A stretch of 32,150 nucleotides of DNA from an uncultured Anaerolineales bacterium (lineage in GTDB: Bacteria; Chloroflexota; Anaerolineae; UBA3071): the NCBI GenBank assembly GCA_964587335.1, contig CAZPMV010000004.1, forward strand, positions 1 to 32,150. The letters run 5' to 3'. This document shows, piece by piece, positions 708-29,895 of the stretch (its first letter is position 1; each line of letters starts with the position of its first letter). The position numbers and the translations under genes were made by a program. The notes beneath the pieces were generated by a model. It had not been told where the DNA came from and ran no database searches. It worked only from the letters and a program-made list of their open reading frames with translations.

Positions 708-934
708 CTCTTCATGTCCTTCGGTGATGTGCTTCCACCGTTCCTCAGTGAGGTAAACCTCACGCCCCCGGCAATCCCAATACCGTCCATTTGCACACTG
801 CCTCGTCTCCCCAAGTTGACTTCGCCACCGGACAGTTCTTGAACACGAATGTCACGAATGGGCAAATCCAATGTTAGATGCCCACAACAGCCAACCTTCC
901 TCGTCCAATCGCTTTGCTACCTGCTATCCGTCTC

Positions 935-1657
935 TCACAACAGCCGCAAGGCAGTCGCCGTGGAGAAGACGATGAGTAGTTGTCCCACGATGTAGGTCAT
1001 CCAGACCAAGTCGCCTATGAGCAAGAAATGGCCTCCCTGGAACAGCCTGTGTCCCAGGACCAGGTCGGAGACCACGAACAGCACCGCGCCCAGCGCCAGC
1101 GGCACGAAACGGGGCTCCTGCAATGCCAGGCTCATCGCCAGCCCGGCCATGGCCGCTATCAGCAGCGCATAGGCCAGCGACGCATAGTTGAGCACGGCTG
1201 GCTTCTGCGGCGAGCGGACGAACGTCCCCCAGAGGGGAACGACCAAGAGGTAGAACGCAATCAGCACGGCGGCCTGCGCTGTACCGCCCGGCAAGCCCAG
1301 CACCTCCCCCAGGCGCAGGTAGCCGACGACATACAGCACTTGGGCCACGCCAAAGACCCCCATGCCGAACAGTACGTGCTGTGGCAGCGGCAAAAGTTCG
1401 GCCATGATCACGTCGCCGAGGAACGAAAAGGCCATGCCGAAGAAGACGAGAGCGGCGTAGCCAGCCAGTGGTGTGCCTGCCGCGCCAGCCCGCCACCAGA
1501 TCAGTGCACACAGCACCAGAATACCCGACGAGAGCAGCTTGTTGGCGCGGGGGATGCGCTGCATCCGCTTCGCGTCGAGCCGCCCAAAGGCGAAGCCCAG
1601 GGCCAGCAGCGCGGCCCAGACAGCCAGCAACGCATACAGTACGATGGCATAGGACAT
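935..1657 (-). CDS. YhhN-family (lysoplasmalogenase-like) polytopic membrane protein
   Basis: 240 aa, about 8 hydrophobic segments, with 'FSFLGDV' and 'FVVSDLVLG' motifs typical of the YhhN/TMEM86 family. Confidence 0.75.
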   Translation of the reverse strand: MSYAIVLYALLAVWAALLALGFAFGRLDAKRMQRIPRANKLLSSGILVLCALIWWRAGAAGTPLAGYAALVFFGMAFSFLGDVIMAELLPLPQHVLFGMGVFGVAQVLYVVGYLRLGEVLGLPGGTAQAAVLIAFYLLVVPLWGTFVRSPQKPAVLNYASLAYALLIAAMAGLAMSLALQEPRFVPLALGAVLFVVSDLVLGHRLFQGGHFLLIGDLVWMTYIVGQLLIVFSTATALRLL

Positions 1658-1689
1658 GATGTATGTCTCCGGTTCCGTGTTTCAGAGTT

Positions 1690-1935
1690 TCAGGTTTCGG
1701 GTTCCTTGACGTACCAGACAGGGCCAGATTCGCGGAATTTGGGACCCTCGAAGGAGGTGTGCTTCAGATACTCGATGAAGTTGTAGAGACGGCGTGAGAG
1801 TGTGTCGCAACGCCTAACCAGGTCGTCACACTCAGCCTGCGAGATGTAAGCCCATATCCAGAGCAACGTAAGCCTGGGAACGCACCTCGCCGTTGGAACC
1901 TTTGGAAGTGTAGACGAAGTTATGGAACCTGAAAC
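1690..1935 (-). pseudogene. truncated, frameshifted remnant of a four-helix-bundle protein gene (23S rRNA intervening-sequence protein / Avd-like family)
   Basis: One minus-strand frame reads FRFHNFVYTSKGSNGEVRSQAYVALDMG. After a 1-nt shift near 1846-1852 it reads YISQAECDDLVRRCDTLSRRLYNFIEYLKHTSFEGPKFRESGPVWYVKEPET*. Together these match the C-terminal two helices of the family ('GS..E....l.la.d.gYi'). No N-terminal half or start codon is present; the remnant begins right after the Ldh_2 stop codon. Confidence 0.6.
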
Positions 1936-1941
1936 CCGGAA

Positions 1942-3048
1942 CTACTCCAGGTCGTATTCCACCTCCGTCTCCTCAGCGATCTTCCGCAACTCGGCAACGA
2001 CCTTCGGATGCAGTGGGACGCCGTGAGCCCGCCGCTCGTCGGCCATCTCGAATTCCTTCTCACCGTGAATGTAGATGCGCTCCTGCCCCTCTACCTTGGC
2101 TGAATTCGTCAGACGCCGGATGATGTCATCCATGGTGGCCTCGAACCCCTCGATTGGACGGAAACCGTCCACCCGCAGCGCGCCGAAGAAGTGACCCACG
2201 TTCGCCGGCAGCGGCTTGCCATCCGGCGTCTTGGGATAGATGCTGGTGGCGTACCCCGCGCCAGGCAGCACGCCGCAGAGCACATCCACCAACAGCGCCA
2301 GGCCGTACCCCTTGTGGCCTCCCAGTTCCTCGTCCGCTCCGCCCAGAGGCAGGAGCCCACCGCCCGCCCGCGCCAGCAGGTTGCGCAGCACTCGCCCAGA
2401 GTCGGCGGTGGGCACGCCCTGCTCATCCGTGGCCCAGCCTATCGGCAGCGGCTTCTCCTGGCGGTCATACACCTCCAGCTTGCCGCGCGGCACGGTGGAA
2501 GTAGCCATGTCCAGCACGAAGGCCCGCTCCTCGCCTGCCGGCGCGGCCACGCTGATGGGATTGGTGCCCAGCACAGCATCGCGGCCGAAAGTCGGCACTA
2601 CCAGCACGGCAGCGTTGGTCATAGAGAAACCGATGCAACCATGCTCCAGGGCCATCATCGAGTAATAGCCAGCGATGCCGTAGTGGTTGGAATTGCGCAC
2701 GGTGACGAAGCCCGCGCCCACCTGCCGTGCCTTCTCGATGGCCAAGCGCATGGCACGCACCGACACCGGCTGGCCGAGCCCTGCACCACCATCGATCAGC
2801 GCCGTGGCCGGCGTCTCGTGCACCGCTTTGATCTGGGGACGGGCCACCATCACGCCATCCCGCAGACCGTTGACGTAGCGTCTGAGCCGCGCCACACCGT
2901 GAGAATCGATCCCCCGCAGATTGGCGGTAACCAAGCTGTCAGCCGTCACTGCCGCGTCTTCTGGCGGCACATCCAGCTTGATGAACACCCGCGTGCAGAA
3001 ATCCTTGAGCGGCTCTGCCCAAACGACAACTCCGGCGTTTCTAGACAT
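1942..3048 (-). CDS. Ldh_2 family malate/L-lactate/ureidoglycolate-type dehydrogenase
   Basis: 368 aa. 'LRGIDSHGVARL', 'VRNSNHYGIAGYY', 'GTNPISVAAP' and 'GGHKGYGLALLVDVL' are hallmark Ldh_2 (PF02615) motifs. Confidence 0.9.
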   Translation of the reverse strand: MSRNAGVVVWAEPLKDFCTRVFIKLDVPPEDAAVTADSLVTANLRGIDSHGVARLRRYVNGLRDGVMVARPQIKAVHETPATALIDGGAGLGQPVSVRAMRLAIEKARQVGAGFVTVRNSNHYGIAGYYSMMALEHGCIGFSMTNAAVLVVPTFGRDAVLGTNPISVAAPAGEERAFVLDMATSTVPRGKLEVYDRQEKPLPIGWATDEQGVPTADSGRVLRNLLARAGGGLLPLGGADEELGGHKGYGLALLVDVLCGVLPGAGYATSIYPKTPDGKPLPANVGHFFGALRVDGFRPIEGFEATMDDIIRRLTNSAKVEGQERIYIHGEKEFEMADERRAHGVPLHPKVVAELRKIAEETEVEYDLE

Positions 3049-3113
3049 CTTTGTCTCCTTTCATTTATATGTAGAACAGCGCTGAAAGGTCTGACAGGTC
3101 TGAGGCAATCTGA

Positions 3114-4064
3114 TCAGGCTGCTTCAGACCCCTTAGACCCCTCAGTTTCCTCAGTTTCTTTCATCACTCCATCCGCCACTAGCACCTTCTTCAAAGCCAT
3201 GACCGCACATTCTATCATGCTTCCGTCCGGCTCTCGCGTCGTCAGCCGCTGCACCGCCAGACCCGGCGCGATCATCCAGCGCACCAGGGGGTTATCTTGG
3301 TGGCTGGTGCTCAAGCGCACCAGTTCATAGGCGATGCCGGTGACCACGGGGATCAGCAACAAGCGTGCCATCAGGCGGTACAGCCAATGGTTGAAGTGGA
3401 AGGGAGCGAAGAGAAGGATGGACACCATAACTACCAACAGCGTGAAGCTGGTGCCACAACGGGTGTGGGCTGTGGGGAACGGGCTAATCTCCTGCAGTGT
3501 CAGCGGGCGACCTGCCTCGTAGGCGTTGATCGTCTTGTGCTCCGCTCCGTGGTAGGCGAAGACGCGGCGGACATCGGGCATGAAGCCGATGACCCAGACA
3601 TAGCCAACGAACAGCACCAGCCGAAACGCTCCCTCCAACAGGCTGCTTAACAGGTGCGAGGCAACGAAATGCTCTAGCCACTGCGCCACCAGGCTAGGAA
3701 TGAAGAAAAAGACGCCGATGCTGATCGCCAACGCCAGGGCCATCGTCGTCCAGGCTATCGGACCGCTGAATTCGACGTCCTCTTCCTCGCTCAGAGCCAC
3801 ATCGGCCGAGAAGGTCAGCGTGCGCATGCCCAGCACCAGCGCGTCCCAGAGGACAGCCAACCCTCGCACGAAAGGCAGCTTGGCCCAGCGGCTAGTATAG
3901 ATGAAGGCCTTCAGCGGCTCATCGTGCTGCACGATGTTGCCGTTGGGATGGCGCACGGCCACCGCCATGTGCGTGCGCCCGCGCATCATCACGCCTTCGA
4001 TGACCGCCTGCCCGCCGTAGTGGAAGTTGCTGTCAGGTTTCTCTCGGTCGTTATCTTTCGACAT
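3114..4064 (-). CDS. DUF1385 (YqhQ-like) membrane protein
   Basis: 316 aa with 'YGGQAVIEGVMMRG' near the N-terminus and 'YHGAEHKTINAYE', both DUF1385 signatures, plus several TM segments. The last ~15 codons are encoded by period-9 tandem words. Confidence 0.9.
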   Translation of the reverse strand: MSKDNDREKPDSNFHYGGQAVIEGVMMRGRTHMAVAVRHPNGNIVQHDEPLKAFIYTSRWAKLPFVRGLAVLWDALVLGMRTLTFSADVALSEEEDVEFSGPIAWTTMALALAISIGVFFFIPSLVAQWLEHFVASHLLSSLLEGAFRLVLFVGYVWVIGFMPDVRRVFAYHGAEHKTINAYEAGRPLTLQEISPFPTAHTRCGTSFTLLVVMVSILLFAPFHFNHWLYRLMARLLLIPVVTGIAYELVRLSTSHQDNPLVRWMIAPGLAVQRLTTREPDGSMIECAVMALKKVLVADGVMKETEETEGSKGSEAA

Positions 4065-4135
4065 GCTGTTCTCTGTTCCTTTAGTAGCTTAAGTCAACGG
4101 GGGAAACAAGGCGACGAGTTAATGGGGGATCACGA

Positions 4136-4987
4136 CTATGGCATCTCGACGGGCTCCACGACGAACTGGCCCGGCTTTCCAACCACCACACGCACCCGCC
4201 CAGCCACCATCGTTGGATCATGCTGAAAGATGAGCAGCGCATCGGTGCGCTGCGCCCAATCGCGCAACCGACGCTTGCTCTCAATGCTCTCCATCGGCTC
4301 CGCATCGTAGGCGGGTACCCAGGCCAGTCGCTCCAGCGACACTGCCCAGCCGCAGGCATCGCTCAGAAAGACCGCTGCCTCTCCTTCGCTTTCGATGACC
4401 ACCACCTGGTGGGCCCGCGTGTGACCCCGTGTCACCCAGCAGCGCACCTCGGGCGTGACCTGAGTGTCGCCATGAAGGATGCGCAACTGCCCTGTGACCT
4501 CCAACGGCACAAAGTTCTCAGCAAAGTAGGTGCCCCGTGTACGCTCGTTGGGGTAACGGGCGTCGGCCAGCTCTCGCCGCTGTATCCAGTACTCTGCATT
4601 GGAAAAGGTGGGCACGACCTTTCCGTCCTGATAGAGCGTGTTGCCGCCGCAGTGGTCGCTGTGCAAATGCGTGTTGACGACCGTGTCCACGTCTCCGGAC
4701 CGCACGCCCAGCCGCTCCAGTTCGCTGAGCAGCCGCCGCTCCCCGTGCAAGTTGAGCCGTTCCCGCGCCTTGGCCGTCAACTTGTCGCCGTATCCCGTGT
4801 CTACCAGGATGATCTTACCCGCTGAGCGGATGAGCAGACAGCGCACCACAAGAGGAATGCGGTTGAGTTCATCGGGCTTGATGATCCGCTCCCAGAGCAC
4901 ACGGGGCACCAACCCAAACGCTCCACCCGCATCGTGCAGGGCAATGCCATCGCTCACCACCTCGATGTCCGCATTGCCGATCAGCAC
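4136..4987 (-). CDS. MBL-fold metallo-hydrolase (lactonase-like)
   Basis: Contains the 'VNTHLHSDHCGGN' HxHxDH motif. The ORF-track start at 5086 would overlap ptb by 106 nt. The GTG at 4987..4985 overlaps the ptb stop (GTGCTGA) and gives a typical 'VLIGNADIEVVSDG' start. Confidence 0.85.
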   Translation of the reverse strand: MLIGNADIEVVSDGIALHDAGGAFGLVPRVLWERIIKPDELNRIPLVVRCLLIRSAGKIILVDTGYGDKLTAKARERLNLHGERRLLSELERLGVRSGDVDTVVNTHLHSDHCGGNTLYQDGKVVPTFSNAEYWIQRRELADARYPNERTRGTYFAENFVPLEVTGQLRILHGDTQVTPEVRCWVTRGHTRAHQVVVIESEGEAAVFLSDACGWAVSLERLAWVPAYDAEPMESIESKRRLRDWAQRTDALLIFQHDPTMVAGRVRVVVGKPGQFVVEPVEMP

Positions 4988-6920: not shown

Positions 6921-7014
6921 CTATGCCAGTCAGAAAGGCGCAGGAGAAAGGTTACCATCCCCCCATCCCCCCTTGCCAAGGGTCTTGCGCCACACCCTCA
7001 ATACTCCATGCCGT

Positions 7015-7043
7015 TTGCAGAATCATCCCGCTTATGCTAGAAT
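7015..7043 (+). promoter_or_regulatory. sigma70-type promoter with extended -10 for the 1072-aa secreted protein gene
   Basis: TTGCAG (7015-7020), a 17-nt spacer, then TGcTAGAAT (7036-7043). The 12-mer ATGCTAGAATGG is repeated identically at 29969-29980. Confidence 0.6.
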
Positions 7044-7138
7044 GGCTTTCGGCTTTGCCCAGAACAACGCTTGTCGGTGCTTTTTGCTTGATCTTGTGGT
7101 TACCTACGTAATACACTCTCAAGGAGCAACGTAGTGTC

Positions 7139-10357: not shown

Positions 10358-10370
10358 CTCTGTGAGAGAG

Positions 10371-10464
10371 GTAGACAAGTACATAAGTAGACAAGTACAC
10401 AAGGAACATCCGGTCGTCCTTTCATCCCCTGTGTACTTGTTTCCTTGTCCACTTGTTTCCTTGT
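10371..10464. repeat. paired tandem duplications in inverted orientation (possible terminator or alternative hairpins)
   Basis: GTAGACAAGTACA occurs twice (10371-10383, 10387-10399). ACTTGTTTCCTTGT occurs twice (10435-10448, 10451-10464). ACAAGTACACA (10391-10401) is the exact reverse complement of TGTGTACTTGT (10430-10440). Confidence 0.7.
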
Positions 10465-12714: not shown

Positions 12715-12726
12715 CTTGTCAGTCTC

Positions 12727-19978: not shown

Positions 19979-21430
19979 TCACCTCAGGACAAGCGGCAGG
20001 AACAGGTCATAGCCAGCGGGTGCTGCCGTCGGTGTGTCCGTCGGCGTGGCCGTGGGCGTTGCGGATGGTGTGGCGGTCAGTGTGGACGTCGGCGTTGCGG
20101 TCGGCGTGGCGGATGGCATCGCGGTCGGCGTATTGGTGGGCCCAGCGGTCGGGGTTGCCGTTGGGGTTGCGGTTGGCTCTGGCGAGCGATATTCGTCAGC
20201 GCCCAGGTCGTGTCCGCTGCCGGCGGGGCGGTCGTCGCCATCAATATCCTCGCTGATGCCCGAGTCCACACCTTGATCAATAGCTGCCGAGCCTGCGGTC
20301 AGGTGATAGCCATCGGCCTCGAAGGCGGGATCGCCGCTGGTAGCTTGGGAGATGTCCACCGTTCCCGCGCCGCTCCAATTGCTGTCACTGTTGGCATGCC
20401 ACAGCACACCGTTCAGCGTGACCGTGCTGCCCGCTTCCACGTCAATGCCCACCGTCTGGTTGGCCAGGATGATGTTGGTCAGTTCGACGCTGCTGGGGCC
20501 GGCCCAGGATTCGAGGCAGATGCCGGTGTCGTTGGCGCCGCTGTTGTGGTGGATGGTGCTGTGGAGCAAGTGGGGCGAAGAGTCGGTCACGTACACGCCG
20601 CAGCCGAGGTTGTGGGGCACTGCGAACATATGATTGTAGGCGACGACATCGTTCACCAGGCGGGCGTTGCTGCCAAAACCGAAGTGGATGCCGCTGCCAC
20701 TGAAGCCGGCTGTGTTCGAGGTGATGACGTTGCGGTCGAGGTGGGCAGGGCTGTTATCGAGGAGCAGCCCACCGCCGTCGCCATAGCTGCCGCCAGAGGT
20801 GGAAACGGCGCTGTTAGCGGTGATGACGTTCCTTCTGAGCGTGGCACTGCTGTCTTGCAGGTACAGTCCGCCGCCAGCCTGAGCGGTGTTGCCAAACACC
20901 CGGCAATCCTTCAGCGTGGCCGCAGCGGACATCACGTAGACGCCGCCTCCGGCATCTTCTCCCCAGTGGCCGCCGCCCAGGCTGGCAGCGTTGCCGCCGG
21001 TGATACGCAATCCTTCCAGGGTGGGGGAGATGTTACCGGTGATGTAGACCACGCGTCCCTGCCCCTGAGCGTCCAGAGTGGTAGGGTTAGCCTCCGGGTC
21101 CGGGGTGTCCCAGTTGGTCGTCGCATAGCCGCCGCGGATGGTGACGCTCTTGTTGACGTAGACCACCTGGGCCAGCCCACCATGGTTGTTCACATCGTCG
21201 TAAACGCCGCTGGCGACCTTGATGACATCACCAGCGTTGGCAACGTCTACAGCCTGCTGAATGGTAGCGTAATCGCAGCTCGGTGGGCCGGCCGGACAGA
21301 CGTGCAACTCGGCGGCAGGCGCGGCTGCAACAGGGTCAGACCGGATTCCCAGACCCCATGGCAGAGTCACAACCAGCGTCAGACCCAGACCCAGAGCGGG
21401 TAGAACGAGCCGGTGTTTGCTTTTCGACAT
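19979..21430 (-). CDS. secreted right-handed parallel beta-helix repeat protein with PT-rich linker and a short hydrophobic C-terminal tail
   Basis: Signal peptide 'HRLVLPALGLGLTLVVTLPWGLG'. Repeated PbH1-like units ('GGGLYLQDSSATLRRNVITANSA', 'GGGLLLDNSPAHLDRNVITSNTA'). 'DIDGDDRPAGSGHDLGADEY' is typical of the end of such domains. The C-terminus is (T/A/S-P-T)n followed by 'AGYDLFLPLVLR'. Confidence 0.8.
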   Translation of the reverse strand: MSKSKHRLVLPALGLGLTLVVTLPWGLGIRSDPVAAAPAAELHVCPAGPPSCDYATIQQAVDVANAGDVIKVASGVYDDVNNHGGLAQVVYVNKSVTIRGGYATTNWDTPDPEANPTTLDAQGQGRVVYITGNISPTLEGLRITGGNAASLGGGHWGEDAGGGVYVMSAAATLKDCRVFGNTAQAGGGLYLQDSSATLRRNVITANSAVSTSGGSYGDGGGLLLDNSPAHLDRNVITSNTAGFSGSGIHFGFGSNARLVNDVVAYNHMFAVPHNLGCGVYVTDSSPHLLHSTIHHNSGANDTGICLESWAGPSSVELTNIILANQTVGIDVEAGSTVTLNGVLWHANSDSNWSGAGTVDISQATSGDPAFEADGYHLTAGSAAIDQGVDSGISEDIDGDDRPAGSGHDLGADEYRSPEPTATPTATPTAGPTNTPTAMPSATPTATPTSTLTATPSATPTATPTDTPTAAPAGYDLFLPLVLR

Positions 21431-22962
21431 AGTCTCGAAATTATGTGCTTGGCTTACAGCTAGAGCGTGATACCAGTGAAAGGCGTTTCTTCGAGTATAG
21501 TTGGATTGCAGTATCCAACACTACTCGTAAGGAGAACGCCAAAGATGAGTATAGCTGAAGCCAGGACAGAGCGCAAAAACCGGACGATTACGCTCTATTT
21601 GGGCAGCACCTTGGCTGAATACGGAGCCACCTATCTGACAGCCGAAGGTATCCAAGCCGTAATCGAGAGAGTTGAGGTGGCAGACAGTATCAATTGGGGC
21701 TGTCTCGCTAGGGAACATCACGAGGGTTGCCCTCGGCTGTTACGTTTCACCTACCACAACAGTTATGTTCGTTGGGTCAAGCACTTCAATGGAACACGGT
21801 CGTCGGTTACGATACTCCGGGTCAGATGTTTGGACTGCGGTGCTGTTTTCACCGTTCAGCCATCGTTTGTCATCCGCTACAAGCGCTACGGAACAGATGC
21901 GGTAGAGAAGTTGATGGTCTTGTTGTTCATCACCGAAGACAGTTATCGCATGACTGGTGTCAGCCAAGCATTGGGCATGGACACCAAGCAAGCAGGTACC
22001 TGGATAGCCCTGGAAACGGAACAACCGCATGCCATTCAACCCAGAGCCTTGTGGGGACTCGTGCAATGGTTGGGACAGTTGTCGCCCGCTCAACTGAACC
22101 TGGCTTTGGGAGTAGATCCACCGGAATACATCCTCGAAGACGAGAAACATGTCAAAGAATGCGGGCAAAAAGCCTATGTGCCGATGATCTATGCTCCCAA
22201 AGAAGCCTTGATCTGGTGGGTAGACTACCTCCATAGTGCTTCTGAGGATGCGATAAGAAACAGTTTAGAACGATTCAAGGCTATCAGTGACCGTCTGAGT
22301 CATATCGTCGGTGCCACCGTAGATGGATGGGAAGGTGCCCAGAATGCTCTACGGGCTGCTTTTCCAGGCATTGCTTTGGAAGAATGCCATTTCCATGCTC
22401 TGCTCAAGCTCGGAAAACACTTGGCAACCTATAGGCGTCAACGAAAACAAGCAGGCAAGCCTGTCTCGGACACAGAAGAGGCCAACATTCGCGAGGCCTT
22501 CACGAAAGTCCTCAAAGCACCTACGCCCGAAGCCTACCAGGAAGCATTGGACGAATTGCCGGATGCATTCAAGCACCCTACCATGGCTTCTCGTAAACAG
22601 TCCCTGGTAGAGAAGCAAGCATTGTTCCAGGCCTGGACTACGGACGATAATCTGGCAGTGGTCTCTACGGCTCTGGATCAGTGTATGAAGTTCTTGAAGC
22701 GCAAGTTTCAGAACATGCAGACCTTTCGTGGAGACGAGAGCGGCTTGGCAACCGTAAACGCTTGGGCGATTACACGCAATTGCTGGCGATTTCTCAAAGG
22801 GGCGATACGCGCCGGTCTATCACCTCTCGAATTGGCTGGCGCTGGTTTCCTGGGCATTCCCTGGCTGCAACTGGTCAATTTGGTGTTGGCTGCTTGGCCT
22901 ACATTGCATTTGGCAGCGCCTGTGTTATGCCCAAGCACATAATTTGCTACTATGTCAGAAAA
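21421..22962 (+). mobile_element. insertion sequence (~1.54 kb) with terminal inverted repeats; family not assignable by eye
   Basis: AAATTATGTGCTTGG (21438-21452) is the exact reverse complement of CCAAGCACATAATTT (22931-22945). Imperfect extension outward (TTTTC-GACATAGT on both sides) reaches 21421 and 22962. The element encloses a single transposase ORF and is visibly AT-richer than its flanks. No target-site duplication was found. Confidence 0.8.
21545..22942 (+). CDS. DDE-type transposase with an N-terminal Cys-containing finger
   Basis: ATG 21545 is preceded by AAGGAG. Contains 'RVRCLDCGAVFTVQPSF', 'YILEDEKHVKECGQKAYVPMIY' and 'VGATVDGWEGAQNALRAAFPGIALEECHFHALLKL' (a D...D...FP...C.FH arrangement reminiscent of ISL3 or ISKra4-like enzymes). 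The stop codon lies inside the right inverted repeat. Confidence 0.75.
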   Translation: MSIAEARTERKNRTITLYLGSTLAEYGATYLTAEGIQAVIERVEVADSINWGCLAREHHEGCPRLLRFTYHNSYVRWVKHFNGTRSSVTILRVRCLDCGAVFTVQPSFVIRYKRYGTDAVEKLMVLLFITEDSYRMTGVSQALGMDTKQAGTWIALETEQPHAIQPRALWGLVQWLGQLSPAQLNLALGVDPPEYILEDEKHVKECGQKAYVPMIYAPKEALIWWVDYLHSASEDAIRNSLERFKAISDRLSHIVGATVDGWEGAQNALRAAFPGIALEECHFHALLKLGKHLATYRRQRKQAGKPVSDTEEANIREAFTKVLKAPTPEAYQEALDELPDAFKHPTMASRKQSLVEKQALFQAWTTDDNLAVVSTALDQCMKFLKRKFQNMQTFRGDESGLATVNAWAITRNCWRFLKGAIRAGLSPLELAGAGFLGIPWLQLVNLVLAAWPTLHLAAPVLCPST

Positions 22963-23173
22963 TCGAGGTGTGCCTCAAAGTTGTTCAGCAGCAAACGCAA
23001 AGAACATTGATTCCTTGAGAGACACCTTAAGAACCCCCGTGCCCTCTGTGCCTCAGTGGCGAGTCTGGCAGTTCTTTCAGTGGAGTCGTTTTGCGCTTTA
23101 CGTTTTGCATCTGGTGTGGCGGTGATGCTTTCTCCCCGCCGGTGACCGAGCCCTGTGCTCTCCATACCCGCAT

Positions 23174-23202
23174 TTGACAAAGCGAACATCTGTTCGTATA
23201 AT
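23174..23202 (+). promoter_or_regulatory. consensus sigma70 promoter of the radical SAM gene
   Basis: TTGACA (23174-23179), a 17-nt spacer, then TATAAT (23197-23202). Both hexamers match the consensus perfectly. Confidence 0.75.
23183..23196. promoter_or_regulatory. LexA operator (Cheo-box type, CGAAC-N4-GTTCG)
   Basis: CGAACATCTGTTCG is a perfect palindromic match to the Gram-positive-type SOS box. It lies entirely within the -35/-10 spacer. Confidence 0.65.
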
Positions 23203-23256
23203 GGCAGCCAGCGGGGAAACATCCGAAGCGAATGATCGGACAGGAGACGGGAACCG

Positions 23257-24405
23257 ATGGATACTCATCAGAAGCTCGACTTGCTGGGTCAAGCAGCCAG
23301 TTTCGATGTCTGCGCGCCGTCGGGCCGCTCGGCGGCGATGGCGCGAGGGTGCGTACAGCAACCACCAGATGTTAGGCCCTACATCTCCCACGTGCAACTG
23401 CCGAGCGGGCAGAAGAAGCCGGTGCTGAAGGTGCTGCTCACCAGCTTCTGCGAGCGCAACTGCCACTACTGCGCCTTCCGCGCTGGACGAGACCTGCCTC
23501 GCGCAGCTTTCACTCCCGACGACCTGGCCGCCGCGTTCGACCAGATCCAGCACCAGGGGCTGGTGCAAGGGCTCTTTCTCAGCTCCGGCGTGACCGGCAG
23601 CGTGCGCACCATGGACCGCATGATCGCCACAGTGGAGATCGTGCGCCAACGCTACGACTACCGCGGTTATGTCCACCTTAAGATACTGCCCGATGCCGAA
23701 GAGGCGCAAATCGAGCGGGCGGTACGGTTGGCAGATCGAGTCTCGGTAAACCTGGAAGCGCCGAATGCGGAGCGCTTGGCAACATTGGCGCCGCGCAAGG
23801 AGTTCGGCCAGGGCCTGATGGACCCGCTGCGCCGGGCGGCGGCAGCCATCGCCCGCGGGCAGGGCCGCTGGGCGAAGCTGGGGCTAACGACGCAGTTCGT
23901 GGTCGGCGCGGTGGGGGAAAGCGACCGTGAGCTGCTGACCACTACGCAGCGACTGTACGACGATCTGCGTCTGGCGCGGGCCTACTTCAGCGGTTTCAGC
24001 CCCATCCCCGACACGCCATTGGAGGAACATCCCCCTGCCCCTCCTGCCCGGCAGCACCGCCTGTATCAGAGCGACTTTCTCATGCGCTACTACGGCTTTC
24101 GGTTCGACGAGTTCATCTTCGACACTGAGGGCAGCCTGCCAGTGAACATGGACCCCAAGATCGCCTGGGCCCAGGCGCATCCGGAACGCTTCCCCATGGA
24201 GGTCAACCGCGCCTCCAAGGCTACTCTGCTGCGGGTTCCCGGCATCGGCCCCGTCTCCGCCCGCCGTATCCTGCAGGCTCGTCAGCAAAGCAAGCTGTTC
24301 TTCCTGAGCGATCTGCGCAAGCTCGGTGTGGTGACTTCCCGCGCTGCTCCCTACGTCCTGCTGAACGGCAAGCGTCCGCCGCTGCAACTGAGCCTCTTCG
24401 CTTGA
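23257..24405 (+). CDS. putative DNA modification/repair radical SAM protein (TIGR03916-like) with C-terminal helix-hairpin-helix
   Basis: 'KLDLLGQAASFDVC' start, 'LKVLLTSFCERNCHYCAFR' (CxxxCxxC), 'GLFLSSGV', 'GYVHLKILP', 'ADRVSVNLEAP...LAPRK', 'RLYQSDFLMRYYGF', 'DPKIAWAQAHPERFPMEVN', and the HhH motif 'LLRVPGIGPVSARRIL'. Confidence 0.85.
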   Translation: MDTHQKLDLLGQAASFDVCAPSGRSAAMARGCVQQPPDVRPYISHVQLPSGQKKPVLKVLLTSFCERNCHYCAFRAGRDLPRAAFTPDDLAAAFDQIQHQGLVQGLFLSSGVTGSVRTMDRMIATVEIVRQRYDYRGYVHLKILPDAEEAQIERAVRLADRVSVNLEAPNAERLATLAPRKEFGQGLMDPLRRAAAAIARGQGRWAKLGLTTQFVVGAVGESDRELLTTTQRLYDDLRLARAYFSGFSPIPDTPLEEHPPAPPARQHRLYQSDFLMRYYGFRFDEFIFDTEGSLPVNMDPKIAWAQAHPERFPMEVNRASKATLLRVPGIGPVSARRILQARQQSKLFFLSDLRKLGVVTSRAAPYVLLNGKRPPLQLSLFA

Positions 24406-24495
24406 ATTGGACGCGGACAAACGCGGAAGGCAGCAGACTCTGGGTCAGCGGAAAAGCGGAAGAAGCGGAATGAAAGCAACCTTCTGGAGAGAACA

Positions 24496-24942
24496 ATGCC
24501 TTACGAGATCCCGCCTCGTCAGAGGCCCAAAGACGACAACGGCTACTTCGAGCAACTGACCAAGGCAGTCTTCCGGGCTGGCTTTAGCTGGAAGGTCATC
24601 CGCGACAAGTGGCCCAACTTCCAGCGCGCCTTCGACGGCTTCGACATCAAGAAAGTGGCACGCTACGATGCCCGCGATCTGGATCGGCTGCTGGCCGATG
24701 AGGGGATCGTCCGCAATGGCCGCAAGGTTGAGGCCACCATCCACAACGCCAATGTGATACAGCAACTCATCGCCGAGCATGGTTCGTTCTACCATTACCT
24801 ACGCAGCCTGGATGGGCTAGACTACGCGGCCCGTCGCGAGGACCTGCGCCGCCGCTTCAAGCACCTCGGCCCCACGGGCATATTCGTCTTTCTCCACTGC
24901 GTGGACGAGGATGTGCCGAAGTGGGAGGAGCGGAACGTCTGA
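24496..24942 (+). CDS. tag: short DNA-3-methyladenine glycosylase I (Tag, Adenine_glyco)-like protein lacking the N-terminal Cys/His segment
   Basis: 'GYFEQLTKAVFRAGFSWKVIRDKWPNFQRAFDGFDIKKVARYDARDLDRLLADEGIVRNGRKVEATIHNA' aligns by eye to E. coli Tag residues ~30-125 ('LFEMICLEGQQAGLSWITVLKKRENYRACFHQFDP...AGIIRHRGKIQAIIGNA'). It is only 148 aa. Confidence 0.7.
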   Translation: MPYEIPPRQRPKDDNGYFEQLTKAVFRAGFSWKVIRDKWPNFQRAFDGFDIKKVARYDARDLDRLLADEGIVRNGRKVEATIHNANVIQQLIAEHGSFYHYLRSLDGLDYAARREDLRRRFKHLGPTGIFVFLHCVDEDVPKWEERNV

Positions 24943-24992
24943 TTGCGGATTGACGATTGCGGATTGCGGAATGGGACATCTGCGAACTGTGG

Positions 24993-25021
24993 TTGACAAG
25001 ATCTGACTCTGATGATATACT
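24993..25021 (+). promoter_or_regulatory. near-consensus sigma70 promoter of the 326-aa lipoprotein gene
   Basis: TTGACA (24993-24998), a 17-nt spacer, then TGaTATACT (25013-25021). Confidence 0.65.
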
Positions 25022-25087
25022 AATGGTCAGTGCAGGAACCACATCGCTTCACATGTTTCCCCGGGAAGAGGGGAAGGAGGTTGTCGC

Positions 25088-26068
25088 ATGCGTGCCTCAC
25101 GTTCTGTCCTCTTGGTCGCTACGTCGGTCATCCTCTGTTTGGTCAGTCTGACGTCGGCAGGCTGCGGTGGGTGGCGGGAAGCCCCATCTACGGAACCAGA
25201 ACCATTCCACGTCAACTTGCCCCGTCTGCACGTGACCTACGACGAGCAAGGCGAGCCCAGCATTCGAGGGGTCGGCCTGAGCACTGTCGAGCGGTTGGTG
25301 CGATCTGACCTGACGAGGCTCCGCTTCCCGCCAGAGCAGGTTCGGCAGTTGATGGAGTGGAACATCCAACACATCGAGCTGGCCCTGACAGCGGATGGGC
25401 TGTTCGTTTTCGTGAACAACAGACTCTTGCCGTACCTGGCCTGGGATGAGCAAACCCTGGCAAATGTGGGAGCGATGGCAGACAGACTGGATGTGCTACT
25501 GCCATCCGCTGCTCGATTCGTCCGCCTGCAGAACGTCTTGCCCCTGATACTACGCGGCGTTGGTGTGGGCATCGTCTTGGAGCTTCCCCTGGCTCCCGGC
25601 CAGGAGACCATTCCCTTCGAGGGTCATCCCAACGGCCTGCCAGTGACCCCGCCCGCGGAGGCTGCGGAGAAGCCGCTTACTCTCCACCTCCCCCTGCAAT
25701 ACGACCAGGCAGGAGAACCGTCTGTTAGCGGCATCAGAGTGCAGGAACTGGAGAAACTGACGGGGCAGCCCGTAGTGATCGGCAAGCTGGATCAAGCCAC
25801 CATGGGCACTATCCAGCAGGCCGAAGTCGAAACCGTGCTGGTGAAGATGGAAGCCAAGGGTCTTGTGCCCTACGTCAATGGCCAGCCAATGCCCTACATC
25901 GCCTGGGCGGACGAGCATCTGCTGAACCTGATTGAGCTCATTGAGGTCACATCTCCTGACGATCCCATCCTGGGCAATCCTCACCTGATTGACCTTGTGC
26001 GCCGCGCCGTGCCGGGGGTCAAAGAGGCCGACATCCAACTGTTCGTCGAGTTCCCTGCGCAGCCGTAA
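25088..26068 (+). CDS. probable lipoprotein with two homologous ~95-aa repeats; function unknown
   Basis: GGAAGGAGG lies 7 nt before the ATG. Signal peptide ends 'LTSAGC'. Repeat 1 'LHVTYDEQGEPSIRGV...GLFVFVNNRLLPYLAWDEQTLANV' parallels repeat 2 'LPLQYDQAGEPSVSGI...GLVPYVNGQPMPYIAWADEHLLNL'. Confidence 0.7.
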   Translation: MRASRSVLLVATSVILCLVSLTSAGCGGWREAPSTEPEPFHVNLPRLHVTYDEQGEPSIRGVGLSTVERLVRSDLTRLRFPPEQVRQLMEWNIQHIELALTADGLFVFVNNRLLPYLAWDEQTLANVGAMADRLDVLLPSAARFVRLQNVLPLILRGVGVGIVLELPLAPGQETIPFEGHPNGLPVTPPAEAAEKPLTLHLPLQYDQAGEPSVSGIRVQELEKLTGQPVVIGKLDQATMGTIQQAEVETVLVKMEAKGLVPYVNGQPMPYIAWADEHLLNLIELIEVTSPDDPILGNPHLIDLVRRAVPGVKEADIQLFVEFPAQP

Positions 26069-26133
26069 CCGACGCCTGACCTCACCTGACAGGGGCTGAG
26101 TGACTGACAGGCGCTGGGGAGACCAAACAAACC

Positions 26134-26946
26134 ATGAAGCGCTGGACGTGGTGGCTCATCGGCCTGATCGTACTGGCCATCCTGGTGGCCGCTGGGTATG
26201 CCGCGTGGCGCTGGCGCCCGCAAGAACGCTTGGAGACGACACCCACGCCCGTTCCTCTCACATCCACCCCTGAGCTTGCCGCCGTCGCCGAGGAAGAAGA
26301 GACGTTCTCCAAGATGCGACAGCAGATGGTAGAGCGCACCATACGCGCCCGCGGCGTCAGCTGTCCAGAGGTGCTGCGGGCCATGGAGACGGTGCCCCGC
26401 CACCGCTTTGTGCCAGATCGCTACCTGACAGAGGCCTACGCCGATCACCCGCTGCCCATCGGCTACGGCCAGACCATCTCCCAGCCCTACATCGTGGCGC
26501 TGATGACGGAATTGCTGAGGCTGGAATCAGACGAGCGAGTACTGGAGATCGGCACCGGCTCCGCTTACCAGGCGGCGGTGTTGGCCGAACTGGTGAACGA
26601 AGTCTACTCCATCGAGATCGTCCCCGAACTGGCCGATAGCGCTGCCCAGCGGCTGAAAGCGCTAGGCTACGACAACGTGCGCACGAAGCAAGGCGACGGC
26701 TACTACGGGTGGGAGGAATACGCCCCCTTCGATGCCATCATCGTCACCTGCGCGCCGGACCACGTGCCACAGCCGCTGGTCAACCAACTGGCCGAAGGCG
26801 GGCGACTGGTCGTTCCCGTCGGCCCGCCAGGTGGCTATCAGACGCTGTGGCAGTACGTGCGGGAAGAGGACGGGCTGAAGGCCTACAACCTCGGCGGGGT
26901 GCGCTTCGTGCCCCTGCTGCGGGAGGCGCCACAGTCAGCCGATTAG
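26134..26946 (+). CDS. pcm: protein-L-isoaspartate O-methyltransferase with an N-terminal transmembrane anchor
   Basis: 'VPRHRFVP', 'HPLPIGYGQTISQPYIVALM', 'VLEIGTGSAYQAAVLA' and 'GGRLVVPVG' are PCMT motifs, preceded by 'WWLIGLIVLAILVAAGYAAW' and a ~45-aa linker. Confidence 0.9.
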   Translation: MKRWTWWLIGLIVLAILVAAGYAAWRWRPQERLETTPTPVPLTSTPELAAVAEEEETFSKMRQQMVERTIRARGVSCPEVLRAMETVPRHRFVPDRYLTEAYADHPLPIGYGQTISQPYIVALMTELLRLESDERVLEIGTGSAYQAAVLAELVNEVYSIEIVPELADSAAQRLKALGYDNVRTKQGDGYYGWEEYAPFDAIIVTCAPDHVPQPLVNQLAEGGRLVVPVGPPGGYQTLWQYVREEDGLKAYNLGGVRFVPLLREAPQSAD

Positions 26947-29528
26947 GCCGATTGAGCCAATGATTCATCGGTTGCATCGGCTTCGTCGGCTTCATCAGCT
27001 TCATCGGCTTCATCGGCTGACTCTACCAGCCCCCAGACGCTCAGCGCCGCGGCAGCGTAGCAGGCAGCGCCTGCGCCAAGCACTGCGCTGAAGCCCCACG
27101 ACACCGCTCCTAGCGCAGCCAGAATCGAACTGAGCACCGACGTGCAGCCGTTGACCGCCCAGGCCCAGGGGATGAGCCTGGGCGCTCCTCGTTCCAGCAG
27201 TCCGATCCCTTTGGGGAAGGGCACGCCCATCAGAAAGCCGAGCGGGGCCAGCGCCAGCACAGCGATGACGAAGCGGCAGCCCAGTGGCAACCCCAGCGTC
27301 AGCCGGAAGAGAGGCGACAGGAGCAGCGGACAGAGAACGATGGCCGCGACCAGCACGACGAGCATCAGTCGGTGCGGCAAGAGCGGCGCGCAGAAGCTGC
27401 CCAGGCCCGAAAAGAGCAGCAAGGCGAACAACACAGCGGTCATGGCGTACACAGGCTGACCCAGGAAGAGGATGAACCGCTGGATCAGTGGGATCTCCAC
27501 GAACAGATAGGCCAGCCCCAGCAGCCCGAAGTACAGGAAGGCCCGCCCCCTGAGCTTGCCGAGTTCCCACGGATTCCCCCGATCACCCTCAGACCCTGCA
27601 TCGGAATGTCCGGTTCTCCTCACCAGGAGGGGCCCCAGGATCAGCACCGCCGAGGCCAACAGCGCCAACGCCAACAGCGCCAGAAACACGAAGTAGCCAC
27701 TGCCGCCGAAGGGCTGCCACGTCTTGCCCAGCGTTCGCAGGATGGCCGGCGTCTGCTGCCAGCGGAAGAAGTGGAAGAAGAAGGGGTGATCGTCAGTCGG
27801 TGGGGCGACGGCGAAGGGATAGCCGGCATAGAAGGTTCGCCGGTCGTCGGCGGCCAGCAGCTCGCCGAAGGCCTGGGCGTAGGTCGGCTGCGCCAGCACG
27901 TTATAGCGGTTGATCTCCTCGGCGCTGATGCTAGGCCCGACGACGAGATCGAAGCGACGGGCAGCGCAGAACTCCCGCACAGCGTCCACTTCCGCCAAAG
28001 TGAAGCCGCTCTTTGTGACCAAGAACGTACCCGTCTGCACACCGCGGAAGGCAATCACACTGTCCGCCGGATGGCTGACACCCGCTCTCTCCAGTGCTTC
28101 CAGGATCAACGCCAGCGTGCGAACGCTCTCGCTGGGTGGGGTCTGCAGCCAGCGCGTCACCACCAACAGGCCGTCGTCCTCCAAGTGGGCCAGATACTCG
28201 CCGAAGGCCTCAACGGTGTGCACGTAGTCCTCGGCCAGGCTGTAGACGCCAGAGGTCACGGGGCGATAAGATCCTGTGAGCGCCAGTTGCACCAGATCGA
28301 ATAACTCGCCACTGCGGCGCAGGTAACTGCGCCCCGCTTCCGTCACTACGGTAACCCGCGGATCTCCGTACACATCGCCGGCGGGCGGGGACATGCCGTA
28401 GCGAGCAGCAGCCAGCAGCAGCGGGTTGCTTTCCACGGCGGTGACGGCAGAAGCGCCCTCCGCCAGAGCGGCCCACACGTCCAGCCCCCCTCTCGGTTCC
28501 AGGATGAGGGCCCGCGCCCTCGGCCGCAAGCGGTAAGCCATCGCCGCTGGCAAATAGCCGCTGAACGCCAACTCGGCTTGCGGGTCGATAATGAGTGGCA
28601 CGGGGGAGAGGTCATCGCCGTCCACGCTCAGGCCAAGCTGTGGTGGGGGCGCGCCGCTGTAGGTGTAGCTCAGTCCTGGCAGTTGCCGCACGCCGGGGCT
28701 CTCCAGCAGGTCCACGCGGGAGAAAGCATTCCAGTCGCTGAAGACGACCCGAGCACCCGGATAGTGCAGTGCCTGGCTCAGTCCCTTGTAGGGCGAAAGC
28801 TGGACATCGAGGAAAGATGGCTGCACCAGCGTCAGCCAGGCCAACAGCGCCGTGCCCGCCAGGTAGCCCAGGGGCAGCAGACCACGGAAGCTCCCGCCGG
28901 ACGGCCACGTCCGCCGCCTGTCCGCCGACCTTGGCCGTCCGGCGGCAGCGTGTCGTGATCTGGCGAAAGCGGCCGCACTGAGCCAGCCCAGGAGCCCCGC
29001 TGCGGCGATAGTGCCTGGCCCGCCCAGCCGGGGCAGCAGCAACACAGCCAGCAAACAGCCCGCTGCCGAACCGGCCAGGTTGGCAGCGTAGAAACGGTTG
29101 GTCCGCTCGGGGGCCGCAGCCAGCGGGACGGACATCGCCAGCCCACTGAGGGCGAAGGGCACAAGCAGCGCCAGGTAATGCAGCAGCAAGTAGGCGACTT
29201 GCAGCCGGTCCCAGGCGATGCTATAGGAGTCGAAGGGTAGGATGTTGGTGAGCAGGTAGCTGGCGGGCACGCTGAGGCCAAAAGCGGCTGCCAGCCAGAC
29301 CAGGCGGCGGGGCCAGCGCCCGTGTGCCAGCCGCGGCCAGAGCGTCAGCGCCGATCCGCTGGCGCCGAAGCCCAGCAGCGCCAGGCTCACGGCCATGAAG
29401 GCGAAATGGTAGAACTGGGCCACAGAGAAAATGCGCGTCAGGCTGATCTCGAAGACAAAAGTGGCTGCCGCCAGCAAGAAGAGGCCCAGATAGATGGGGG
29501 TCACGGCCTTCCCTTTTCGCATGATCAC
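26943..29528 (-). CDS. polytopic membrane protein with a central spermidine-synthase-like (SpeE-fold) domain
   Basis: 861 aa. N-terminal TM block 'FVFEISLTRIFSVAQFYHFAFMAVSLALLGFGASG', central 'ALILEPRGGLDVWAALAEGASAVTAVESNP...FDLVQLAL...GLLVV', and a C-terminal TM block. The start may be ATG 29522. The last ~25 codons are encoded by the 9-mer array. Confidence 0.8.
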   Translation of the reverse strand: MIMRKGKAVTPIYLGLFLLAAATFVFEISLTRIFSVAQFYHFAFMAVSLALLGFGASGSALTLWPRLAHGRWPRRLVWLAAAFGLSVPASYLLTNILPFDSYSIAWDRLQVAYLLLHYLALLVPFALSGLAMSVPLAAAPERTNRFYAANLAGSAAGCLLAVLLLPRLGGPGTIAAAGLLGWLSAAAFARSRHAAAGRPRSADRRRTWPSGGSFRGLLPLGYLAGTALLAWLTLVQPSFLDVQLSPYKGLSQALHYPGARVVFSDWNAFSRVDLLESPGVRQLPGLSYTYSGAPPPQLGLSVDGDDLSPVPLIIDPQAELAFSGYLPAAMAYRLRPRARALILEPRGGLDVWAALAEGASAVTAVESNPLLLAAARYGMSPPAGDVYGDPRVTVVTEAGRSYLRRSGELFDLVQLALTGSYRPVTSGVYSLAEDYVHTVEAFGEYLAHLEDDGLLVVTRWLQTPPSESVRTLALILEALERAGVSHPADSVIAFRGVQTGTFLVTKSGFTLAEVDAVREFCAARRFDLVVGPSISAEEINRYNVLAQPTYAQAFGELLAADDRRTFYAGYPFAVAPPTDDHPFFFHFFRWQQTPAILRTLGKTWQPFGGSGYFVFLALLALALLASAVLILGPLLVRRTGHSDAGSEGDRGNPWELGKLRGRAFLYFGLLGLAYLFVEIPLIQRFILFLGQPVYAMTAVLFALLLFSGLGSFCAPLLPHRLMLVVLVAAIVLCPLLLSPLFRLTLGLPLGCRFVIAVLALAPLGFLMGVPFPKGIGLLERGAPRLIPWAWAVNGCTSVLSSILAALGAVSWGFSAVLGAGAACYAAAALSVWGLVESADEADEADEADEADATDESLAQSA
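26966..27021 (+). repeat. tandem 9-mer array (CATCGGCTT consensus, 6 clear copies) ending in CATCGGCTGAC
   Basis: CATCGGTTG CATCGGCTT CGTCGGCTT CATCAGCTT CATCGGCTT CATCGGCTG AC. Two to three more degenerate period-9 units lie at 26941-26965. The array encodes the ADEADEADEADEAD tail of the convergent 861-aa ORF. Confidence 0.9.
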
Positions 29529-29567
29529 TCACCGTTGTTGCTGCCCAACTCCGACAATTCGTCTGAC

Positions 29568-29895
29568 CATCAGCTTCATCGGCTGACTGTCAGCGGAAAA
29601 GTGGAAGGAACGGAAGGAAACAGAGAAGATCGACAGAAGCATGAACTCCCATCGGCTTCATCGGCCACATCAGCTTCATCGGCTGACTGTCAGCGGAAAA
29701 GCGGAAGGAACGGAAGGAACGGAAGGAAACAGAGAAGATCGACGAAAGCATGAACTCCCATCGGCTACATCAGCTTCATCGACTCCATCGGCTTCATCGG
29801 CTACATCAGCTCCATCGGCTTCATCGGCCACATCAGCTCGATCAGCTACATCGGCTCCATCAACTCCATCGGCTTCATCGGCTTCATCGGCTGAC
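29568..29895 (+). repeat. composite repeat: CATCGGCTT-type 9-mer arrays (2 + 4 + 15 copies) interrupted by two copies of a ~65-75-bp core
   Basis: Core 1 spans ~29586-29649 and core 2 spans ~29686-29758. The cores are identical except for 2 substitutions and one extra GGAAGGAAC unit. Each starts inside the palindrome GCTGACTGTCAGC (29582-29594 and 29682-29694, exactly 100 bp apart). Fifteen consecutive 9-mers run from 29759 to 29893. Confidence 0.9.

Follow-up and report, generated by a model that had tools for sequence, protein, structure and literature searches.

In a 32,150-nt stretch of DNA from an uncultured Anaerolineales bacterium (GenBank assembly GCA_964587335.1, contig CAZPMV010000004.1, positions 1 to 32,150 of the forward strand; hereafter the window), the spacers between genes are rich in short tandem arrays, in which a word of mostly 7 to 9 nt is repeated head to tail. 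Such arrays (2-15 copies) are about 12-fold over-represented in the non-coding DNA. With a probability of roughly 0.55, we interpret them as lineage-specific simple sequence repeats with 7-9-nt units and a stutter-like origin, some of them co-opted as 3' stem-loops; they would be the Chloroflexota counterpart of the short tandemly repeated repetitive (STRR) sequences of cyanobacteria and of the heptamer repeats of Xanthomonas and Nostoc. The repeat type is already known from cyanobacteria and Xanthomonas, and the Chloroflexota lineage is new for it: our literature searches found no description of such repeats in Chloroflexota.

Short tandem arrays exceed chance expectation in non-coding DNA

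The window has a G+C content of ~61% and is gene-dense, with most open reading frames (ORFs) assigned by Pfam. Gene calling by ORF length alone masked the array signal, as spacers were mis-assigned in DNA of 61% G+C. The gene map used here rests on genes with Pfam support, on gene calls taken over from other assemblies and on a filter on G+C at third codon positions. Arrays were detected as adjacent copies with a period of 7-16 nt, and low-period units were discarded.

Exact tandem duplications of this period range were found at seven loci in ~3.3 kb of intergenic DNA versus three in 28.9 kb of coding DNA, and two of these three fall within the final 10-25 codons of an ORF. An earlier reading of the window, made from its letters alone (the sequence-only reading), had named shuffled and coding sequence as the comparison that could overturn the pattern; it survives both. 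Using 200 dinucleotide-preserving shuffles per segment, we observed 6 exact intergenic duplications versus 0.26 expected, and 17 versus 1.27 when up to one mismatch was allowed (shuffle maximum 5 in 200). The same test gave 3 versus 2.8 (exact) and 30 versus 17 (up to one mismatch) in coding DNA. With gene calls taken from independent assemblies instead, the intergenic count was 17 versus 1.41 expected.

The arrays are also no product of the assembly. Seven contigs from other assemblies (ENA, Logan, JGI) cover positions 1-4746 and 20143-32150 with 99.2-99.9% identity and without gaps, and array lengths are the same in independent MEGAHIT, Logan and JGI assemblies. This gapless alignment with at least four independent assemblies of different strains argues that the arrays have been neither collapsed nor expanded artificially.

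The repeats listed by the sequence-only reading are present, at or a few bases from the places it had given. Two of them, at 26075-26111 and 24411-24430, had been taken for tandem copies; the first is a spaced direct repeat and the second a 7-mer with a 3-nt spacer. The arrays of the window are the following.

843-861: ACACGAATG/TCACGAATG, two copies, period 9; 73 nt 3' of the YhhN stop (minus strand), in a 440-nt spacer before a 129-aa minus-strand gene
1677-1700: GTTTCAG-type word, three copies, period 7-8; 19 nt 5' of the YhhN start (minus strand), leader side
1890-1907: CCGTTGGAA/CCTTTGGAA, period 9; 34 nt 3' of the Ldh_2 stop (minus strand)
3082-3158, minus strand: array-built hairpin across the DUF1385 stop codon (3114-3116), with 36-nt arms that are 78% complementary, 3082-3117 (AGGTCTGAC twice) and 3110-3145 (AGACCCCTT twice)
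3140-3158: CCTCAGTTT twice; final codons of the DUF1385 ORF
4066-4079: CTGTTCT/CTGTTCC, period 7; abuts the DUF1385 start codon (minus strand) on its 5' side
6954-6974: CCATCCCC twice; divergent spacer between a HEAT-repeat gene (minus strand) and a GH5/SH3 gene (plus strand)
10364-10470, plus strand: left arm GTAGACAAGTACA(N3) twice, right arm CTTGTTTC four times; longest inverted repeat of the window (41-nt arms), between two co-directional GH5 genes, beginning 13 nt past the stop
12849-12876: GTTGTAG twice, then directly CTAGTGTAG twice (AABB); convergent tRNA-Val/IF-2 spacer, overlapping the IF-2 stop
19726-19794: ACGTAAAACGT-type words, inverted (19739-19750 against 19783-19794, 100% complementary); same word family in the relatives L208 and L212
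19945-19978, minus strand: TGCTCCTC twice, then TGTGCCCT twice (AABB); abuts the stop of the beta-helix gene (minus strand), upstream of its intrinsic terminator (19913-19894)
24411-24471, plus strand: ACGCGGA twice with a 3-nt spacer, then GTCAGCGGAAAAGCGGAAGAAGCGGAA, a word of a dispersed family; spacer between the radical-SAM gene and tag
24941-24970, plus strand: GATTGCG/GATTGAC, four copies, period 7; starts within the tag stop codon
26075-26111, plus strand: CCTGAC and CTGACAGG words at 10-20-nt spacing; not detected as tandem, and the weakest item of the earlier list
26933-27022: array-built hairpin over the overlapping stops of PCMT (plus strand) and an 861-aa membrane protein (minus strand); left arm of GCCGATT-type words with period 9, right arm TTCATCGGC six times
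29568-29893: compound array of two 100-nt unit copies, each with CATCGGCTT words and GTCAGCGGAAAAGCGGAAGGAACGGAAGGAA, followed by fifteen copies of the CATCGGCTT 9-mer
30105-30122, plus strand: CACGAATAG/CACGAACAG, period 9; 20 nt 5' of the DHODB_Fe-S start codon

Units of 7, 8, 9 and 10 nt occur 11, 11, 9 and 1 times, respectively. Copy number is mostly 2-4, with extremes of 6 (26964-27018) and 15 (29758-29892). At 12849-12876, 19946-19977 and 3124-3158, distinct two-copy words abut each other; such an AABB layout requires successive local duplications. In the Caldilineales metagenome-assembled genome (MAG) L003, three word families tile entire spacers. The words showed neither a purine bias nor a preferred strand or orientation with respect to the upstream gene (15 versus 13).

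Arrays are confined to a few relatives and invariant among strains

The nearest relatives by NusA and the radical-SAM protein are Anaerolineae and Caldilineales MAGs with 54-61% identity among the GTDB representative genomes. We compared the close relatives L208, L212 and L209 (~80% identity) and the more distant L210 and L211 (60% identity). Extra sequence from the same organism or near relatives came from L129, L178 and L198; these were the only contributions of the lineage to an exact metagenome scan with CATCGGCTTCATCGGCT, which returned 120 loci, nearly all of them unrelated coding matches.

A lineage-specific propensity, as the sequence-only reading had suspected, is borne out. Across 80 NusA loci of other bacteria (1.45 Mb) there were 151 arrays versus 141 expected, and no excess was found in Dehalococcoidia, Roseiflexaceae, other Anaerolineae or ~65 Firmicutes loci. 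Only the window, L208, L212, L129, L001, L003 and L012 show an excess, which is strong in the window, L208, L212, a Caldilineales MAG and an Anaerolineae MAG. Tandem counts were 9 versus 0.9 expected in L208 and 3 versus 0.4 in L212; L209, which is as close to the window as these two, yet lacks an excess (1 versus 0.7), and L210 and L211 gave 1 versus 0.6. That relatives at the same distance differ in this way is easier to reconcile with a process or agent that comes and goes in evolution than with a signal the cell cannot do without.

Whether the words or only the duplication habit are conserved received a mixed answer. Orthologous spacers of the ~80%-identity relatives mostly hold different words or none: after tag, the window has GATTGCG four times, L208 has GGAATGC twice plus GGATTGC, L212 has ACGTGAA-type words and L209 has no array. 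After the radical-SAM gene, however, ACGCGGA words are common to the window and L212, where they face an inverted array.

The strain contigs contain 91 variable sites. Three of them lie in 2,228 nt of spacer and none in arrays, versus 66 in 4,850 nt of third codon positions. Copy number is the same across the seven strain contigs for all arrays covered, which is not the behaviour of phase-variable repeats. The SNPs themselves are unevenly spread: the GltD-like gene at 30982-32150 holds 35 of the 91, of which 32 are at third codon positions, and this density suggests that the segment was recombined from a more divergent strain.

Arrays fill non-coding DNA but spare the ribosome-binding segment

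The sequence-only reading had placed the arrays directly 3' of most stop codons. They are indeed dense there: at 67 reliable stops of the lineage, arrays cover 10-19% of positions +1 to +70 and 3-5% of the final 120 coding nt, and post-stop coverage at 271 stops of control genomes is 1-3%. They also occur in other non-coding contexts. In a profile based on trusted gene calls (window, L208, L212), in which non-coding positions alone were counted, coverage after stops was 13-19% from +1 to +90. Before starts it amounted to 0-3% at -1 to -20, 12-15% at -21 to -60 and 2-6% farther upstream. Divergent spacers are as dense in arrays, at 7.6 (window) and 5.0 (L208) per kb. In co-directional spacers arrays lean towards the stop (median distance 24 nt versus 102 nt; 9 of 12 in the first half), a tendency that is not significant at n=12.

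Arrays occupy the non-coding DNA save the ribosome-binding segment, and perhaps also the promoter segment. The impression that they follow stops arises because they fill all non-coding DNA but the ribosome-binding segment. A general signal tied to stop codons does not agree with these data, since divergent promoter spacers and 5' leaders are as dense and only the last 20 nt before starts are avoided. Several individual assignments change accordingly: after strand assignment, the arrays at 1677-1700, 4066-4079 and 30105-30122 each sit 5' of the start of the nearest gene, and 29568-29893 falls in a divergent spacer, in a promoter and probable leader region. The idea that genes with a classical terminator show less of the pattern was contradicted twice, by the array at 19945-19978, which lies between the stop and the terminator at 19894-19913, and by the L208 orthologue of the 11931-11966 terminator, which has a 17-nt tandem duplication just before it.

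Two arrays that had been counted as intergenic, 3124-3158 and 26964-27019, lie inside ORFs and code for C-terminal tails. In the 861-aa protein, the translated right arm forms an (ADE)n tail that extends 22 aa past the conserved C-terminus of an 80%-identical orthologue, and the array-encoded tail of DUF1385 lies past the Pfam domain. Two ORFs are prolonged past their conserved ends by in-frame 9-mers.

The compound array at 29568-29893 is probably part of a ~360-nt 5' leader of the 861-aa gene, because it lies downstream of a predicted minus-strand promoter (TTGACC-17-TATAGT at 29928-29900) that is conserved in L208. On the minus strand, each 100-nt repeat copy holds a hairpin that resembles a terminator (29631-29654, 29740-29763), CGATGGGAGTTCATGCTTTCGTCG with a T-rich run after it, and these repeats may act as a leader or attenuator. 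The minus-strand 9-mers of this probable leader also contain in-frame ATGs (MKPMKPMELMEPM*). We considered the resulting Met-rich mini-ORFs as a leader-peptide attenuator and rejected this, as no ribosome-binding sites were seen.

Some words are shared between unrelated loci

The sequence-only reading described the word as different at each locus, which is too strict: a number of word families reappear at loci unrelated to each other and in the genomes of relatives. The 18-mer TCAGCGGAAAAGCGGAAG, which it had reported at both 24445 and 29690, was confirmed through the L081 coordinates. The recurrent families are:

CATCGGCTT(n) ending in CATCGGCTGA: three window sites and L129, L178 and L198
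GTCAGCGGAAAAGCGGAAG: window 24444, 29583 and 29683; L208 9060; L178 5200 and, in inverted form, 5247
AATGACC(n) followed by TTCGTC(n): L208 14730; L198 8384
ACGTAAAACGT-type words: window 19739 and 19783; L208 2470-2560 and 14800-14843; L212 3542-3569
GTAGACAAGTA: window 10371; L003 1603

In ~45 kb of the organism of the window, five or six word families recur at 2-6 loci. Common substrings of at least 12 nt between genomes number 10 (5 without ascertainment bias) versus 0.5 expected. Most words were met only once, with 68 distinct exact units in the lineage sample. At the dispersed families no fixed ends were seen, the copies being few, and no gene for a REP-associated tyrosine transposase (RAYT, Y1 transposase) or of IS200 type was found among the window ORFs scanned.

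Other dispersed sequences occur in the same genomes. An intergenic element of ~150 nt with 92-94% identity in two blocks is present at 22959-23090 of the window, just past the DUF6431 ORF, and at an unrelated locus, L129 648-794; in the L129 copy the two blocks are separated by an inserted GTAG...CTAC palindrome. Perfect palindromes of a REP-like kind, headed by GTAG (GTAGGGGC(G/A)GGT...ACC(C/T)GCCCCTAC), were found at L129 708-737 and L208 16714-16742. The L208 palindrome lies inside the coding sequence of the 861-aa orthologue and encodes VGAGLKPAPT exactly where two orthologues fail to align.

Hairpins at gene ends account for a minority of arrays

The three longest inverted repeats of the window (10364-10404 with 10427-10467, 3082-3117 with 3110-3145 and 26933-26963 with 26992-27022) are all built from arrays and all lie at gene ends. 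Folding z-scores were -4.1 for 10364-10467, -2.6 for 3082-3145 and -5.3 for 26933-27022 (the last with 0 of 200 shuffles), and folding was stronger still in related loci (L178 5191-5301, z -6.4; L001, z -7.0). The stems of the window are strong and lack a clear T-run, and a consensus terminator scan missed them.

At the convergent PCMT junction, hairpins are present in three genomes, each built from a different, unrelated word family (z -5.3, -4.3 and -6.0), and L209 has no hairpin there (z -0.4). That structures at gene ends are kept while their words are replaced suggests that a subset of arrays acts as 3' stem-loops, and a 3'-end role is plausible for those forming strong hairpins at gene ends. 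This subset is small, with only three or four hairpin-forming array sites in the window. A strict search for reverse-complement partners (11 of 12 bases), run for every window array, found only the one at 10371, which means that hairpins explain a minority of arrays. Unpaired examples (843-934, 24406-24495, 24935-25087) had z-scores between -0.3 and -1.2 and hence no excess structure.

Two structures of a different kind were noted in the relatives. An identical 44-nt C-run/G-run hairpin sequence (CCCCCCCTCTTTCCCCCCCACTGGGGGGGACGAAAGGGGGGGAG) lies within the final codons of two consecutive ORFs in L178 (1649-1692 and 2986-3029). Long C-tracts followed by G-tracts (CCCCCACCC...GGGGGGGGCCCGGGGGGGGGGGG) lie in the DHODB_Fe-S leader of L208 (19384-19440); this run could fold into a strong hairpin, be prone to quadruplexes or mark a weak point of the assembly.

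Comparison with known repeat systems

The statement that the arrays belong to no described repeat class went too far, since they match published intergenic simple sequence repeats of 5-11 nt (PMC2670836, PMC4692102, PMC4679880). In kind, they come closest to the cyanobacterial STRRs, tandem units of ~7 nt with several word families per genome, intergenic or intercistronic placement, hairpin capability and suggested functions in stabilising transcripts or coupling translation (PMC2670836). The window shares the short tandem units, the several word families, the non-coding placement and the hairpin potential. In contrast to STRRs, units of 7, 8 and 9 nt occur in equal shares, there are mostly 2-4 copies, and the words are unrelated to STRR1-3; the consensus families of heterocystous cyanobacteria (CCCCAGT, TTGGTCA, CAACAGT) are not matched by window words. 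Unit lengths, unrelated words, low copy number and a host from the Anaerolineae group of the Chloroflexota thus speak against strict STRR membership.

In layout, the closest match is the Xanthomonas/Nostoc GGGAATC and GGGGA(C/T)T heptamers (Rehm et al. 2015, PMC4692102). These are 89-93% intergenic and mostly lie between co-directional genes, on average 28 nt from the upstream and 160 nt from the downstream ORF; some are paired as inverted repeats, and they occupy the same gene junctions across related species with varying length and sequence (PMC4692102). They consist of one dominant G-rich, quadruplex-capable word, whereas the window has many words and no G-run bias. Similarly, the TAACTGA direct repeats of marine Beggiatoaceae are abundant, intergenic, present in 2-6 copies and phylogenetically sporadic (MacGregor 2015, PMC4679880), but they use one word placed a few nt 5' of starts, where the window arrays avoid the final 20 nt.

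The most general comparison is with long simple sequence repeats of 5-11-nt motifs, a statistical class of repeats longer than chance (Mrazek, Guo and Shah 2007, as summarised in PMC4679880). According to that summary they are sporadic across phyla with heptamers commonest, are ascribed to polymerase slippage with a step set by polymerase-DNA contact, and are tolerated in coding DNA when the unit is a multiple of three. All features of the class as given there recur in the window, including head-to-tail units (here of 7-9 nt) beyond composition expectation and a lineage-specific, sporadic over-representation. Chloroflexota are not among the lineages named in that account, and the window arrays have fewer copies and are in many cases paired with complementary arrays.

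Two further classes can be set aside. Head-to-tail units of 7-9 nt are not CRISPR arrays, in which repeats of 23-50 nt alternate with unique spacers of similar length. Repetitive extragenic palindromic (REP) sequences and the mosaic elements built from them (BIMEs) in proteobacteria are extragenic, often lie just 3' of stops, form stem-loops and are dispersed in both orientations. REPs are imperfect palindromes of 20-40 nt with one or a few conserved sequences and a GT(A/G)G head, and are linked to RAYT genes. In contrast, the window arrays are periodic and highly diverse and in most cases lack a complementary partner; the scanned ORFs of the window include no RAYT gene.

Origin and possible function of the arrays

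According to the reading that we favour, arrays would be products of a stutter-like duplication as DNA is synthesised, in steps of 7-9 nt, through polymerase slippage or template switching; the latter would also yield inverted copies. They would survive where they are harmless (3' untranslated regions, intercistronic spacers, leaders and dispensable protein tails) and be purged from coding DNA and ribosome-binding sites. Where an array faces a complementary one, long stem-loops would form exactly at gene ends, probably serving as terminator or stabiliser structures for transcript 3' ends, a role that has been put forward for STRR and REP elements as well. The narrow unit length, the AABB layout, the presence in all non-coding compartments, the purging, the random orientation, the turnover of words and the patchiness together point to a duplication process. 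The sequence-only reading had offered a 3'-end signal, protein-binding iterons or slippage; slippage fits the 7-9-nt units and a 3' role is plausible for the hairpin subset, but a general stop-linked signal is not supported.

Several observations weigh against this reading. The lineage sequence sampled amounts to only ~90 kb. In 2-4 strain assemblies the arrays carry no indel or SNP and are not visibly unstable, and the spacers within 20143-32150 contain 0 SNPs in 1,228 nt versus ~9 expected from the 80 SNPs found across 10.8 kb of flanking genes, a test that is weak because the SNPs are strongly clustered. Invariant arrays argue against hypermutable contingency loci and hint at constraint more than at neutral filler. 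Identical words of 16-22 nt at non-orthologous loci or in different genomes (CATCGGCTT(n)GA, GTCAGCGGAAAAGCGGAAG, AATGACC(n)+TTCGTC(n)) cannot stem from independent local slippage, so copying and dispersal or sequence-specific selection must also act. Finally, the 3'-end role of the array hairpins is something that we only infer.

A doubtful but serious possibility is that the arrays are mainly functional cis-elements at the RNA level, stem-loops or protein-binding platforms for termination, 3'-end protection or translation tuning, with duplication as the route by which stems are built. This would account for the three top inverted repeats on stop codons, the strong folding (z -2.6 to -7), the structure retained at the PCMT junction of three genomes with replaced sequence, and the spacers free of strain variation. 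Arrays located between a stop codon and a terminator are, by that position, transcribed. STRRs have been proposed or shown to act at the RNA level (PMC2670836). Most window arrays, however, have no complementary partner or excess structure, divergent promoter spacers are equally dense, word orientation is random relative to the gene, and the close relative L209 manages without arrays. REP elements, too, have been proposed or shown to act as 3' elements in RNA.

A related proposal, which we consider improbable, is that 3'-end and intercistronic stem-loops of transcripts are built de novo in this lineage, by a process of stutter and template switching that produces a tandem array of a 7-9-nt word and next its inverted copy, that selection keeps the hairpin at gene ends while words are replaced between species, and that the shared vocabulary marks an undescribed dispersal mechanism or a dedicated binding protein.

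The shared words could also belong to small mobile or dispersed elements with a tandem-word body, similar to REP/BIME, MITEs (miniature inverted-repeat transposable elements) or small dispersed repeats of cyanobacteria, and spread by a transposase or recombination. Composite words common to non-orthologous loci and genomes (10, or 5 free of ascertainment bias, versus 0.5), the constant CATCGGCTGA end found without exception on CATCGGCTT arrays, the coexistence with the ~150-nt element and the GTAG...CTAC palindromes, and a patchy distribution among close relatives that is typical of mobile DNA are in line with this idea. It is nevertheless unlikely, given that most words occur once, that no terminal inverted repeats, target-site duplications or fixed boundaries were seen, that copy number varies from locus to locus, that the window has no RAYT or IS200-type gene and that AABB tiling of whole spacers does not resemble discrete insertions.

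We judge it very unlikely that excised insertion sequences (IS) or MITEs left the two-copy words behind as footprints of their 8-9-bp target-site duplications. IS256-, ISL3- and IS4/IS5-type transposases duplicate targets of 7-9 nt, the window has an ORF with weak IS256/ISL3 similarity, and most arrays have exactly two copies. On the other hand, arrays of 3-15 copies exist, complementary arrays make hairpins, the same words occur at several loci, different duplications abut directly, and one copy of the target site is normally lost when a bacterial IS excises. Chance, low-complexity composition or assembly artefact is refuted: items such as 26075-26111, 23043-23058 and CTGTTC x2 are weak and near-repeats of 8-9 nt with one mismatch arise by chance at ~1.3 per 3.3 kb, but the intergenic count was never attained in 100-200 dinucleotide shuffles of the spacers, control genomes lack the excess and array lengths are identical in independent assemblies.

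Other features of the window

The products assigned by Pfam include YhhN, Ldh_2, DUF1385, a metallo-beta-lactamase-fold protein, PTA_PTB, a HEAT-repeat protein and two GH5 proteins. Further genes are tRNA-Val, IF-2, YlxR, NusA, BacA, the beta-helix protein, a radical-SAM/HhH protein, Tag, PCMT, the 861-aa membrane protein and DHODB_Fe-S with a GltD-like protein. An Rfam search of the window at a permissive threshold found tRNA-Val alone.

The beta-helix gene and the DUF6431 ORF (weak similarity to IS256/ISL3 transposases, ~52-55% G+C) lie at 19979-22942. In L208 and L209 both are missing from the interval that separates bacA from the radical-SAM gene, and they look like an insertion in the lineage of the window.

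An extended -10 motif, TGnTAnAAT, recurs 5' of several window genes and of tRNA-Val. Promoter-like sites at 6995-7045, 12690-12720, 23174-23202, 24993-25021 and 29951-29980 have this box in common, often as TGCTAGAATGG.

The nusA leader contains a hairpin followed by a U-run (AAAGTGGG-N4-CCCACTTTTCTT) that is conserved in every relative examined: window 17008-17047 (the minus strand being sense), L208 6782-6813, L209 3871-3910, L003 4037-4058 and L001 1770-1795. It resembles a transcription attenuator of the nusA-infB operon.

Significance

The arrays extend a poorly understood group, the 7-9-nt intergenic tandem repeats (STRRs and long simple sequence repeats), to uncultured Chloroflexota. 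For MAGs of this group they carry an annotation risk, namely spurious repeat-encoded ORF tails and false long ORFs in spacers. The lineage also offers a natural comparison, as equally close relatives occur with and without the habit and orthologous junctions carry hairpins made from different words. This comparison could help to tell a mutational origin of the arrays from a function at transcript 3' ends.

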